Below, piece by piece: positions 38,446 through 43,331 of a DNA stretch of 64,000 bases. The notes beneath the pieces are model-generated. The model was not told where the DNA came from and did not search any database. It was given only the letters and a program-made list of their open reading frames with translations. This DNA comes from an uncultured Candidatus Binatia bacterium. Lineage in GTDB: Bacteria; Desulfobacterota; Binatia; UBA9968; JAJDTQ01. Both the position numbers and the translations under genes were made by a program. How positions within the stretch are numbered: position 1 is the stretch's first letter; the number at the start of each line of letters is the position of its first letter. The stretch is from contig OZ244070.1 of NCBI GenBank assembly GCA_965215605.1, positions 1,088,001 to 1,152,000 on the forward strand. The letters are read 5' to 3'.

Positions 38446-39225
38446 GTGACGTCACCGGATCAGTTCATCGACGAGTTGTGGGATTACGCAAACCAGGTGC
38501 CAATGGTGGAGCACCCTTGGTTCAAGGGTATCGTCGACCACCGGTGGAGCCGCGAACAGATCGTCCTGGGGGAGGTGCAGCACTATCTCCGGGTCCGCAC
38601 CAACCCCATCTACTTCGGCTACATGGCAGTCAACGCGGTGGCGAACCGGGAACAGGGGTTGGCGGACGTGGTGCTCGAGAACTTCATGGAAGAGCTGTCG
38701 GGCGACCGCAGCCACGTGGACATCATGTACCAGTTCCTGGAGGAAGCCGGGATCTCGCGCGACGAAGCCGACAACGCCGAGCCCACGCCCGGCACGCTGG
38801 CGGCCATCGAGATGATCATCGGCTGCTGCCAGCGAAGGTCCGCGCTGGAGGGCGTGGCCATGCTTGCGTTCGTCGAAAGCCAGCACGGCGGCCCCGACGG
38901 CGCGGCCGCCCGGGTCTACAAGGAGTTGGCGGGATACTACGGCTTTTCGGAACGGCAAGTGGAGACGTACCGCATCCATGCGGAACAGGACGTGGGGCAC
39001 GGCTCCCGGCAGATCGATACCCTTTGCCAAGCCGCCGCCGATCCGGAGGTCCGGGAACGGATCCGGCGCGCCGTGAAGCTCGGCATCACCGCGTTCACGC
39101 TGGAGTGGGACGGCCACGTCCAGGCCATGACCGGGCGGCGGGACTTCTGGCCCGGCGTCCGGCCCTTCGACCCACGTCAGGCGGAGAACAGCCTGCCGCG
39201 GGCACGGCAAGCGCAAGCGCGGTAG
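38446..39225 (+). CDS. Heme-oxygenase-like diiron oxidase (CADD/PqqC/TenA fold)
   Basis: HPWF, ENFMEE...SH, FVE, IHAEQDVGHG metal-ligand pattern; AGGAGG RBS. Confidence 0.82.
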   Translation: MTSPDQFIDELWDYANQVPMVEHPWFKGIVDHRWSREQIVLGEVQHYLRVRTNPIYFGYMAVNAVANREQGLADVVLENFMEELSGDRSHVDIMYQFLEEAGISRDEADNAEPTPGTLAAIEMIIGCCQRRSALEGVAMLAFVESQHGGPDGAAARVYKELAGYYGFSERQVETYRIHAEQDVGHGSRQIDTLCQAAADPEVRERIRRAVKLGITAFTLEWDGHVQAMTGRRDFWPGVRPFDPRQAENSLPRARQAQAR

Positions 39226-39248
39226 AGCACGAACTACCCCACCCTGCG

Positions 39249-39299
39249 TGGATTCCCGCCCCCCGATGGGGTCGAGGGCATGCTTTCGCGGGAACGACG
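39249..39299. repeat. REP-like palindrome with internal insert
   Basis: TGGATTCCCGC-[CCCCCGATGGGGTCGAGGGCAT]-GCTTTCGCGGGAACGACG; same family as 57687. Confidence 0.7.
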
Positions 39300-39325
39300 T
39301 ACCGGGACAGGCGAGGCGGGCCGCC

Positions 39326-39541
39326 TTAGAGCGGCCAGTCGTCCGGCAGCGGCGCGCGCAGCTTCTGGTACTCGGGGTCGTCGCCGCAGGTCTCACCCAC
39401 GCCTTTCAGCGTCGCGACGAGGTCGTCGAGTTCCATGCCCAATGTGTTGGAGACCATACCCGCGGTCTCTTCGAAGCCGAGGCCTCAATTCCCGTATCAG
39501 CCGCCCATGCGCTTGAAGATGTATATCTCCCGTTCGGTCAT
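39326..39541 (-). CDS. Putative 71-aa selenoprotein with two in-frame UGA codons (GG-U-YGN-U-G)
   Basis: Manual translation MTEREIYIFKRMGG*YGN*GLGFEETAGMVSNTLGMELDDLVATLKGVGETCGDDPEYQKLRAPLPDDWPL(TAA); GGAGGGG RBS; TGA at 39497-39499 and 39485-39487; downstream hairpin. Confidence 0.7.
39450..39469 (-). promoter_or_regulatory. Candidate bacterial SECIS hairpin
   Basis: GAGACCG-CGGGUA-UGGUCUC stem-loop with G-rich loop, separated from the second UGA by 15 nt. Confidence 0.55.
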
Positions 39542-39594
39542 GCTTTCCCCTCCAAACCGCTAATCCACGTCTTCAGTCCCATCCATGTCAACCG

Positions 39595-40038
39595 TCAGAC
39601 ATTCACGGCATTCGGTTGACGTTCCGGCTCGGAAAAACCGACTCGTTGAACCGTCACCAGATCGGTCTCGGCCGCGGGCGCCCCATCCCTTGCGAAGCGC
39701 ACGGTCATGCGCGCCAGTATCCGCCAACGCGCCCCTTGCCATTCTACCGTAGTGATCAGGAACGCATTCTCCACCACGTCCCTACCGTTGCAAGCTACCA
39801 CGGCCTCCAGATGCGTGCTGCCCGACGGCGCCACGCGGACAGGGTCCAGCTCCATGAGGCCGCTGAGAAACTTCCCGTGCGGGAAGCGGGCGTCCAGCAA
39901 CCGCGTCTCGGAAGAGGTCAGGTTGTCGATGCGCCAGACGATGCGCCAATCCCGGCCGCTCCGGGCGCAGGACGTCTGTGTGACCCGGACCCGCGGTTCG
40001 CCGGCTTCCTGCCCTGCACGCGGTCGCGCACCGCTCAT
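39595..40038 (-). CDS. Hypothetical beta-rich protein coupled to UbiD gene
   Basis: MSGARP...FPHGKF...VVENAFLI...; ATGA overlap with the UbiD-family stop codon. Confidence 0.65.
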   Translation of the reverse strand: MSGARPRAGQEAGEPRVRVTQTSCARSGRDWRIVWRIDNLTSSETRLLDARFPHGKFLSGLMELDPVRVAPSGSTHLEAVVACNGRDVVENAFLITTVEWQGARWRILARMTVRFARDGAPAAETDLVTVQRVGFSEPERQPNAVNV

Positions 40039-41411
40039 GAACCGTTCCCCCTGCGAGGCTGCCCGGGCCGGTACTCCGCGGCGGCGATGCGGTCGGGGAA
40101 CTCGATGTCCGCGTTGCGGCAGGCGTCGACGATGAGCTTCGAGCCCCAATCCTGACCCGGGTGCACGGGATCCAGGCGGCTGCCCTTGACCCGGTCGATG
40201 ATGGAGATGTCGGTTGCGGCATCCACCCGGGTGGCCACGGCCCACAACACCTCCTCCTCGTCGTACACGTCGATGTCCGCGTCCACGACGATGACGTGCT
40301 TCAGCAGCTCCGTTCCCGTAAACGCGGCCATGGCCGCGAGCTTGGCCTCGCCCTCGCAGCGCTTGTCGATGCTGATGTAGCAGTGGAACCGGCCGGCGCC
40401 GCTCAGCGGCAGACAGACCGACTGGACCGTGGGCACCACCGCCTGGACCTTGCGGTAGATGCTGCCCTCCTTGGGAACCGCCCCCAGCAGGCGGTGGTCC
40501 CGGTGTCCCGCCAGAATATCCATGCACCAGGCGCCCCGGCGATGGGTGATGGCGGTGACCTCCACCACCGGTGACTCCCCCGCGCCGCCGTACAAGCCGG
40601 TAAAGTCTCCGAAGGGCCCTTCCATCTCCCGCTGGTGCGGGAGTACCCGGCCCTCGACGACCATCTCCGCGTCCGCGGGCACCAGCAGCTCGTCGCCGAA
40701 GGTTTCCGACGGCACCAGCCGCAGCGGCTCGCCCATGAGCCCGCCGATGCTCTCGTATTCGTCCTCGGCGATGCCGTTCAAGATGCAGTTGCCGAGGTAG
40801 TAGGCCGGATGGTGCCCGATGACGCAGGCCACCGGCAGCGCTTCGTTGCGTTCCTCCGCGCGCACGAAGTAGTCCCAGAGATGGCGCCGCTCGAAGAACA
40901 TGACCAAGTGGTTCGGGTCGCGCACGTAGCAGCGGTGGAAGGACGAGTTGTAGACGCCGGTGTCCGGATCCCTGGCGCACCAGGTCATGGTCAGATAAGG
41001 GCCGAGGTCCGCGACGTGGTGGGTCAGCACCGGCAGGAAGTGGAGGTTGGGGTCCATCGTGACCTGCTTCACCGGCGCGTCGGCGGCACCCACGACGACG
41101 GGTTTCTCCCGCCTCGCTTCACGGGCCTGGAACTCGATCATCAGCTCCCGGCCGGCCTGCTCGGGCGGCAGGCCCAGGGCCACGGCGCAGGCGGCGCGGG
41201 ACGCGAACACGTTCATCAGGAGCGGGAACTCCGAGGGCTCGCCGCTCAGGTTGTCGATGTTGGAGAAGAGCACCAGCGGCTCCTGCTTCCGCTTCTCCAG
41301 ATCCGCGATCATGGCACAGACTTCCAGGTTGATGTCGTGCTTGCCGGTGACCTCCATCAGCCGCTCGGGGGCGAGGCGCTTGACGGAGTCGATGTAGGTT
41401 CGCAGGTCCAT
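40035..41411 (-). CDS. UbiD family (prFMN-dependent) decarboxylase
   Basis: MDLRTYI, RDPDTGVYN, VPADAEMVVEG, EGPFGDFTG, IVVDADID, WAVATR, SKLIVDA. Confidence 0.9.
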   Translation of the reverse strand: MDLRTYIDSVKRLAPERLMEVTGKHDINLEVCAMIADLEKRKQEPLVLFSNIDNLSGEPSEFPLLMNVFASRAACAVALGLPPEQAGRELMIEFQAREARREKPVVVGAADAPVKQVTMDPNLHFLPVLTHHVADLGPYLTMTWCARDPDTGVYNSSFHRCYVRDPNHLVMFFERRHLWDYFVRAEERNEALPVACVIGHHPAYYLGNCILNGIAEDEYESIGGLMGEPLRLVPSETFGDELLVPADAEMVVEGRVLPHQREMEGPFGDFTGLYGGAGESPVVEVTAITHRRGAWCMDILAGHRDHRLLGAVPKEGSIYRKVQAVVPTVQSVCLPLSGAGRFHCYISIDKRCEGEAKLAAMAAFTGTELLKHVIVVDADIDVYDEEEVLWAVATRVDAATDISIIDRVKGSRLDPVHPGQDWGSKLIVDACRNADIEFPDRIAAAEYRPGQPRRGNGS

Positions 41412-42626: not shown

Positions 42627-43331
42627 ATGAGTCAATCGGTCAGCGCCTACAACTACGAGACATTCAACCGCTCGGAAAGCTCGGCCAAGGCCGGCGAGTT
42701 CACCGCCCGCCTGCGGGCCGGAGAGGAAGCCCCCGACTTCGCCCTCCCGACCCTCGACGGCGATACGGTCAGGCTTTCCGGGTTCAAGGGCAGCAAGCAC
42801 GTGCTGCTGGAGTTCGGCAGCATCACCTGACCGCCCTTCGTGGGCGAGGTCTCGCCCCTCAACGAAATGTACCGGAACTACCGCGGCAAGGGCTTCGAAT
42901 TCCTCACCATCTACGTACGTGAGCCCCATCCGGGGGAGCATTACGGTCCGCACAAGGACTTCGAGCAGAAACTGGAATACGCGCGCCAGTGCAGGGACCA
43001 GGACGGCATCGAAAACCCTCTGCTGGTGGATGACCTGGAGGGTACCGTCCATCAACTCTACGGCGTCCTCCCCAACATGATCTACATCGTCAGCAAGGAA
43101 GGTCGCATCGTCTACAAAGCCATGTGGACCGACCACGAAGAGATCCGGGTGGTCCTGGACAACCTGGTCATGGCCGACGAACTGCGCGCCCAGGGCGTGC
43201 GCCTGAAGCCCTCCCTCACCGAGAAGATCAACTTCATCCCCGCCCAGTACGCCGGCGGCCTCCGCGAAAAGGTCTTCGACCGGGCCGGCCCGAAGGCGTG
43301 GGAAGACTACCGGGGGACGTTCGGGGGGTAG
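42627..43331 (+). CDS. Iodothyronine deiodinase-like / peroxiredoxin-fold selenoprotein (Sec at UGA 42828-42830), 234 aa
   Basis: Track ORFs 42627-42830 and 42840-43331 are in the same frame and join as FGSIT-U-PPF (deiodinase FGSCTUPPF); also IYVREPHP, VDDLEG, YGVLPN.IYIV..GRIVYK; SECIS present; AAGGAG RBS. Confidence 0.9.
42842..42857 (+). promoter_or_regulatory. Bacterial SECIS element
   Basis: GGGCGA-GGUC-UCGCCC hairpin separated from the UGA by 11 nt, with an AGGUCU apex like the E. coli fdhF SECIS. Confidence 0.8.

Follow-up and report, generated by a model that had tools for sequence, protein, structure and literature searches.

Among the 119 prokaryotic selenoprotein families tabulated in a 2026 review, the entries with two closely spaced selenocysteines are of the UxxU, CU, and UxxxxU types (PMC13188914). 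Among heme-oxygenase-like di-metal oxidases (HDOs), the protein MboB is required for repeated turnover of the di-iron center of MboA, and the two are described as what may be the first pair of an HDO and a redox partner dedicated to it (PMC13185094). Here, we analyzed a 64,000-nucleotide stretch of DNA (the window) from an uncultured Candidatus Binatia bacterium (assembly GCA_965215605.1, contig OZ244070.1, positions 1,088,001 to 1,152,000), in which a small gene with two in-frame UGA codons lies beside an HDO gene. Very probably, this small gene encodes a di-selenocysteine protein that represents a new family; its mRNA carries an overlapping double hairpin of an unusual kind, and the two selenocysteine (Sec, U) residues of the protein would form a U-x3-U motif.

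The small gene occupies positions 39326..39541 of the minus strand, running from ATG (39541-39539) over 71 codons to TAA (39328-39326). Its 14 initial sense codons, start included, are followed by a first UGA (codon 15, 39497..39499), the codons TAC GGG AAT, a second UGA (codon 19, 39485..39487), and 52 further sense codons; both UGAs are read here as Sec. A preliminary description of this DNA had proposed the same frame, and its coordinates were confirmed, with a translation identical letter for letter. The GGAGGGG that it took as a ribosome-binding site was likewise located at 39547..39553, as a Shine-Dalgarno-like sequence 5 nt upstream of the start (GGAGGGG-aaagc-ATG). GAGG or GGAGG occupies the same place in most orthologs of the same genus (L010-L033), and a site of the GAGG type was not evident in the loci of other families (L034-L039). 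In a plot of G+C content by codon position, the highest third-position value (GC3, 0.72-0.90) over 39320-39480 belonged to this frame and strand, and the lowest value was that of the second position; the periodicity weakened over the first ~20 codons. Furthermore, contigs assembled from RNA libraries (four runs of two studies, one of them labelled sponge metagenome), 88-99% alike to the window, span 39327/39333 to 39517-39558, covering the whole open reading frame with both TGA positions, and their similarity to the window breaks off at its start and stop or a few bases away.

A read-through search of 61 related genomes recovered all 71 residues in 49 of them; identities ranged from 97% to 41%, every match had two in-frame TGAs and no more, and down to the lowest identity the frame and length were kept without frameshifts or other stops. 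Across the order (123 genomes), matches were found in 100 genomes, with most carriers labelled 'Candidatus Binatia'. Both TGAs were kept in 99 genomes and in 102/104 match rows, the two remaining rows being fragments (residues 20-71 and 42-71) that fall short of codons 15 and 19. Recurrence of the whole frame with both TGAs in 49/61 relatives and 99/123 genomes of the order is therefore far beyond chance. A scan of genome contigs also placed the gene on contigs of up to 148 kb labelled Chloroflexota or Limnocylindria (binning as labelled), and among 301 sampled genomes of this second phylum nine were carriers, all nine with two TGAs; SelA was present in the five carrier genomes tested (5/5). 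In an even sample of 401 genomes from the window's own phylum, the window's own genome was the sole match besides one weak, TGA-free match (E 0.002), which we took as chance. At the loci retrieved from the contig scan, codon 15 was TGA in 79/80 and codon 19 in 80/80. The single variant at codon 15, a TGC, belongs to a locus (L085) that matches its TGA twin (L113) over the 72 nt compared.

The mode of sequence change argues for translation from the first codon. Using uncorrected Nei-Gojobori proportions for 86 distinct sequences, codons 5-14, before the first UGA, gave a synonymous proportion (pS) of 0.60 and a nonsynonymous proportion (pN) of 0.28 (ratio 0.46), and the tail (codons 33-70) gave 0.63 and 0.31 (ratio 0.50). 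The segment ahead of the first UGA thus evolves like the tail, from which we conclude that selection acts on the protein sequence of the N-terminus. The start ATG was retained in 29 of the 30 orthologs fetched, and codons 2-14 vary synonymously among orthologs in the codon table; conservation begins at the ATG and not at the internal MVSNTLG, as had been expected for a full-length protein. One ortholog (L020; G025:C3, 1501-1713) has CCC in place of ATG, with unrelated sequence upstream; the gene start may have been altered here by an insertion or rearrangement.

An exhaustive profile search gave 122 protein matches, most of them the 43-aa tail, among which 21 were full-length proteins, all annotated as 'hypothetical protein'. 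Each of these (21/21) carries C-x3-C exactly at the U-x3-U positions of the window protein, and a joint alignment of 26 sequences has C15, C19, F23, T26, M29, R62/63, P66/67, and P70/71 invariant. The cysteine homologs come from metagenome-assembled genomes (MAGs) of Thermoplasmata, Heimdall-/Hodarchaeales (Asgard), Marsarchaeota, and Sulfolobaceae, and from one Chloroflexi MAG. The homologs tested had TGA or Cys at both positions, and not the Trp, Arg, or Gly that would have spoken for another decoding. Within a C-x3-C family that has apparently not been described, the small protein would represent the Sec form. In the same search, three very long repetitive proteins (P0029, P0040, and P0122), one of them of 1081 aa built from a ~60-residue unit, matched profile positions 6-36 in several stretches and look like chance or low-complexity matches.

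In this context, we considered that only the 43-residue tail, from Met29 (39457), or nothing at all is translated, with the TGA block acting as a cis-regulatory leader RNA or belonging to a decaying pseudogene. Public gene calls agree with a short product: as the preliminary description had anticipated for gene callers, all 26 matches of a word-indexed protein search were the 43-aa tail (23) or a 51-aa form (3), with no full-length protein among them, and the tail also makes up most of the profile matches. The weaker GC3 periodicity of the first ~20 codons points the same way, and two hairpins, made up of the most conserved nucleotides, could represent a regulatory element. Nevertheless, codons 5-14 change like coding sequence, with synonymous change at the level of the tail; the ATG, both TGAs, the frame, and its length persist to 41% identity; the full-length cysteine homologs share the N-terminal helix and the C-x3-C; and 99 genomes would not have preserved a pseudogene without change. 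We regard a tail-only or untranslated gene as highly improbable. The frame at 39326..39541 is a real, conserved, and mis-annotated gene.

The genome has the machinery to decode UGA as Sec, which the preliminary description had supposed: SelA (512 bits), SelB (380 bits, above cut-off), SelD (374 bits, with one in-frame TGA), and two tRNA-SeC genes predicted by ARAGORN at C1:259405-259499 (95 nt) and C1:2086515-2086611 (97 nt). The selD, selB, and selA genes are adjacent on the minus strand (C1:1984272-1988341). At least eight other genes of the genome have one in-frame TGA, namely SelD, two CMD, and five AhpC/TSA genes. The two CMD/AhpD-like genes (C1:962382-962576, and C2:5825-6019 on a 50-kb contig) encode an identical peptide around Sec and may reflect a duplication or a redundant contig. 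The second Sec gene, said to lie 3 kb away, is real and belongs to these eight: it is a 234-aa thioredoxin-fold, AhpC/TSA-like gene at 42627..43331 (plus strand), with a PF00578 match and one TGA within ...FGSITUPPF.... A hairpin (GGGCGA-GGUC-UCGCCC) begins ~10 nt after that UGA, and the gene resembles an ordinary Prx- or deiodinase-like selenoprotein.

These observations bear on whether the two UGAs could instead be read through as near-cognate Trp, Cys, or Arg, or be subject to a local stop reassignment, to which we give very little credence. TGA is an ordinary stop in this lineage, terminating the gene upstream (39597-39595) and many orthologs of the small gene itself, and the genome combines a complete Sec system with other single-TGA selenoprotein genes. 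Moreover, both positions align with Cys, the usual counterpart of Sec, and both UGAs are followed by hairpins at distances like those for a SECIS, the selenocysteine insertion sequence.

Two candidate SECIS elements follow the UGAs on the minus strand, in a consensus obtained with RNAalifold from 79 distinct sequences. Hairpin 1 (UGAGGC/CUCG/GCUUCG, 39472..39487), corresponding to the weaker hairpin of the preliminary description, begins 9 nt after the first UGA, and the first three bases of its stem are the second UGA. Hairpin 2 (GAGACCG/CGGGUA/UGGUCUC, 39450..39469), with a G-rich loop, was found as described, 15 nt after the second UGA. All 1014/1014 pair cells form, as the six pairs of hairpin 1 and the seven of hairpin 2 are each present in 78/78 distinct sequences. 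Ten of the 13 pairs never vary, and the other three vary on one side only with pairing kept (G.U, A-U, G-C), two of them in hairpin 1 (G.U/A-U/G-C at one and G-C/G-U at the other). Third codon positions within the stems (alignment columns 30, 36, 45, 48, and 60) are invariant, or nearly so at column 39 (77/78), and two to four different bases occur at the unpaired third positions (columns 42, 54, and 63). In the loop of hairpin 2, CGGG is invariant. Consistently, pS falls to as low as 0.19 in codons 20-32, versus 0.60-0.63 elsewhere.

Distances from UGA to hairpin are 9 nt (first UGA to hairpin 1), 15 nt (second UGA to hairpin 2), and 27 nt (first UGA to hairpin 2), and in the eight other Sec genes of this genome the hairpin begins ~8-26 nt past the UGA, with SelD at 26. 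Two arrangements are therefore conceivable, a hairpin for each UGA or hairpin 2 for both. Under the model that we propose, UGA15 and UGA19 would be decoded as Sec by the SelB system of the organism, placing U-x3-U at the C-terminal end of helix 1, and the two adjacent, near-invariant hairpins of mRNA codons 19-32 would direct the recoding. Either each UGA would use the hairpin that follows it, in which case hairpin 1 must melt before the second UGA is read, or hairpin 2 would serve both; which hairpin may belong to which UGA we deduce from these distances.

An AlphaFold2 (AF2) model, built from a 68-sequence alignment, predicts a confident four-helix domain (mean predicted local distance difference test, pLDDT, 89.9), with helices at residues 3-19, 23-34, 38-52, and 56-62. 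Residues 1-28 belong to the same domain (pLDDT 88-91), which again argues against translation of the tail only. The two Sec residues are spaced i, i+4 where helix 1 reaches its C-terminal end. Helical i, i+4 pairs, of which the HxxxH of zinc fingers is an example, are suited to binding a metal jointly. To form a diselenide within helix 1, the helix would presumably have to unwind locally. The notion of a diselenide-capable protein is unsupported; we reason that this geometry fits the chelation of a metal by both residues better than a diselenide bridge within the molecule. A thioredoxin-fold CxxC/UxxC protein, with its redox motif at a helix N-terminus, does not fit the all-alpha model or the x3 spacing of the motif at the C-terminal end of helix 1.

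The statement that the protein belongs to no recognized family held in all the collections searched. Pfam gave no match for the window protein (E <= 0.01), NCBIfam gave no family (E <= 0.1), and a sequence search of PDB returned nothing significant; for ten cysteine homologs, Pfam and NCBIfam gave chance-level matches only. A search of the ESM Atlas with a cysteine homolog (P0052) returned 'hypothetical protein' clusters only, at 0.76, below the meaningful level. In the main text of the 2026 inventory, Table 1 included, the term 'UxxxU' is absent (PMC13188914). In the passages of the deep-Sep paper that were compared, none of the nine further families resembles the small protein. A literature search gave nothing on Binatia with selenocysteine, and the papers that it gave on UxxxU-type motifs did not, by title and opening of the abstract, concern selenoproteins; likewise, nothing was found on an HDO with a small CxxxC protein.

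The main functional alternative accepts a real di-Sec protein and makes it a small, stand-alone helix-turn-helix (HTH) regulator, a redox- or metal-sensing GerE/LuxR-like factor controlling the oxidase gene. The four predicted helices are of GerE-like size, the top Foldseek matches in PDB were LuxR/GerE DNA-binding domains (ComA, RhlR, NarL, LiaR; TMq 0.55-0.60), and a regulator too would adjoin its target gene. However, none of the 272 Foldseek matches reached E <= 0.001 (best E 0.9), and no GerE, sigma-70 region 4, or other HTH model of Pfam was reached, either by the window protein (E <= 0.01) or by ten cysteine homologs (E <= 1). The net charge is -7 for the window protein and spans -7 to +6 in the family, with a median of ~0, so that it is not consistently basic, and the invariant C15, C19, F23, T26, M29, R62, P66, and P70 form no recognition-helix pattern. 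We consider such a regulator unlikely.

The adjacent oxidase is a 259-aa HDO, distantly CADD-like, encoded at 38446..39225 on the plus strand and thus convergent with the small gene (PF14518, 1.1e-17; PF03070, 1.7e-8). Its nearest solved relatives are PDB 1rcw (CT610, CADD; 2.6e-12) and 8va9 (4-aminobenzoate synthase; 3e-12). An HDO is convergent and downstream in 73/80 Sec-form loci. In metagenome loci with the Cys form, it lies immediately downstream on the same strand in 74/80 (PF03070, 1.9e-27, with PF14518). In the presumed archaeal loci, the Cys-form gene stands ~10-25 nt upstream of the HDO, in an operon-like unit, an arrangement that further argues against a regulator of the oxidase gene. 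The HDO of the Cys-form loci has an N-terminal C2H2 zinc finger (zf-C2H2_9), which the Binatia enzyme lacks, and in 57/80 of these loci a Ta0938-family gene (PF11494) comes third, after the HDO (e.g., L127, 6121-6426). This Ta0938-family protein is Cys-rich, and in the literature search Ta0938 appeared in a phylogenomic study. Across the 123 genomes of the order, the small gene is present in 100 and the HDO in 101; their presence and absence nearly coincide, with six to seven exceptions, all in fragmented assemblies and several at contig ends. Complete genomes without both genes retain SelA (5/5 tested). Because two bacterial phyla and the presumed archaeal Cys loci share this linkage despite the changed gene order, we propose a functional partnership.

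The HDO shares the heme-oxygenase-like fold with CADD and NePabS, self-sacrificing p-aminobenzoate (pABA) synthases (1rcw, 8va9, 9pj4). The six residues that we take to be the 3-His/3-carboxylate ligands of CADD (E81, H88, E142, H174, D178, and H181) align with identical HDO residues in a phmmer pairwise alignment, from which the numbering was counted. The substrate Tyr27 of CADD aligns with Phe26 of the HDO, invariant in 70/70 orthologs, and Lys152 of CADD aligns with a Val, in a gapped stretch of the alignment. Y27F in CADD abolishes pABA formation, as reported (PMC9522330). Moreover, the HDO scores 59.3 bits against TIGR04305, for which the cut-off is 200. Because of the replaced tyrosine and the score below the cut-off, we consider this a different HDO and not a CADD-type self-sacrificing enzyme.

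A replacement of PabB by the HDO in the pABA route was also considered and dropped, as the PabB search was non-discriminating and the HDO lacks the CADD tyrosine. In the 123 genomes, no PabB (TIGR00553) match was above the cut-off, and each genome has a single ~300-bit match to the PabB model, presumably TrpE, with or without the module of small gene and HDO.

Overall, we hold with high confidence that the small gene encodes a 71-residue four-helix protein in which both UGAs become Sec through SelB, directed by the hairpins. That the small protein acts as a dedicated redox or metal-handling partner of the adjacent HDO we put at an even chance, and our confidence in the chemistry of that role is lower. 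Two selenolates or thiolates on one helix face could form a redox-active or metal/Fe-S-binding site, which would supply electrons or metal to the di-metal center of the HDO. A bolder proposal, which we advance tentatively and with more doubt than conviction, is that this is the first Se-dependent HDO accessory protein: a carrier of minimal size (71 residues), either a diselenol or one of metal/Fe-S, which would re-reduce or metallate the center, with a thiol version in archaea. It would be made from overlapping tandem SECIS elements, the second Sec codon lying within the stem of the first, with two SelB-dependent insertions 12 nt apart.

Several points weigh against the interpretation that we favor. 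Sec insertion itself is deduced from the genes, the link to the HDO is drawn from gene neighborhood and co-occurrence, and the AF2 model was computed with Cys substituted for Sec. Pairing of the hairpins was observed in every sequence, but no pair among the 78 sequences is altered on both sides, so that covariation gives no proof, and a shuffle control was uninformative; support for the hairpins comes from the invariance of synonymous stem sites. The hairpin codons also encode highly conserved residues (GLGFEETxGMVSN). Typical bacterial SECIS loops carry a 5' G, and the loop of hairpin 1, CUCG and its variants, has none. Two UGAs 12 nt apart would need two rare recoding events in quick succession, possibly at a low yield. 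DNA present in the libraries may be the source of the RNA-library contigs. Finally, according to a 2026 review of HDOs, the enzymes studied so far need no protein effector.

Directly upstream of the small gene, on the same strand, lies a gene for a predicted ~130-aa, eight-strand beta-sandwich protein (39595..40038; start GTG 39990 or ATG 40038; frame from GC3), an ortholog of which is directly upstream in 79/80 Sec-form loci. The protein had no match in Pfam, NCBIfam, or a PDB sequence search, and its AF2 model (pLDDT 91.5) gave generic Ig-like/ASF1-like folds in Foldseek (TM ~0.35). Upstream of it follows UbiD (40035..41411, minus strand). The ATG at 40038 overlaps the UbiD stop as ATGA (40035-40038), which suggests translational coupling of the two genes in this genus. 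The UbiD, NfeD, band-7, and RluD neighbors are kept within the genus only (17-18 loci). Neither an Rfam family (gathering thresholds) nor a tRNA (ARAGORN) was detected in the window. The TTGACA singled out in the preliminary description is present (39591-39586, minus strand), and a promoter role for it was not borne out, as a scan of 39100-40100 gave no sigma-70-like site and no -10 partner. None of the RNA contigs of the four runs lies over 39597-39995, which says nothing on expression of the upstream gene.

In brief, with the small gene the prokaryotic selenoproteome gains a family that is apparently undescribed and of which standard annotation shows mostly a 43-residue stump. It would stand among the few bacterial proteins with two Sec residues, at a spacing of one helical turn that the 2026 inventory does not list (PMC13188914). 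With two UGAs 12 nt apart, one of them inside the hairpin of the other, its mRNA offers a compact natural test case for recoding. The linkage to HDOs in bacteria (Sec form) and, by cluster labels, in archaea (Cys form) is a lead to a dedicated small HDO partner, and marks an unexplored clade of CADD-like oxidases without the sacrificial tyrosine that is widespread among the Binatia of sponge and soil metagenomes.

Compared with known systems, a functional parallel is MboB, the only dedicated HDO redox partner reported (in 2026), which is likewise a separate protein encoded beside its HDO (PMC13185094). As described there, MboB is a reductase containing NAD(P)H, flavin, and Fe2S2, whereas the small protein lacks a cofactor domain and has, within its 71 residues, only two Sec or Cys, and its role as a partner, unlike that of MboB, is suggested by gene linkage. 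With the HTH domains of GerE and LuxR proteins, the top Foldseek matches, it has in common a similar size and a four-helix topology, but the fold match was not significant (E 0.9), no Pfam match was obtained, and the charge is acidic to neutral. Among selenoproteins, it compares with the UxxU metal-binding family NF041115, the UxxU proteins of the FmdB family, and the UxxxxU protein TsoB (PMC13188914), which are also small or modular, have two Sec a few residues apart, were likewise predicted from Sec/Cys homology together with SECIS-like hairpins, and are presumed to be redox or metal-binding proteins. It differs from all three in lacking any NCBIfam match, these models included, in the placement of U-x3-U on an alpha-helix, in its all-helical predicted fold, and in its constant linkage to an HDO.

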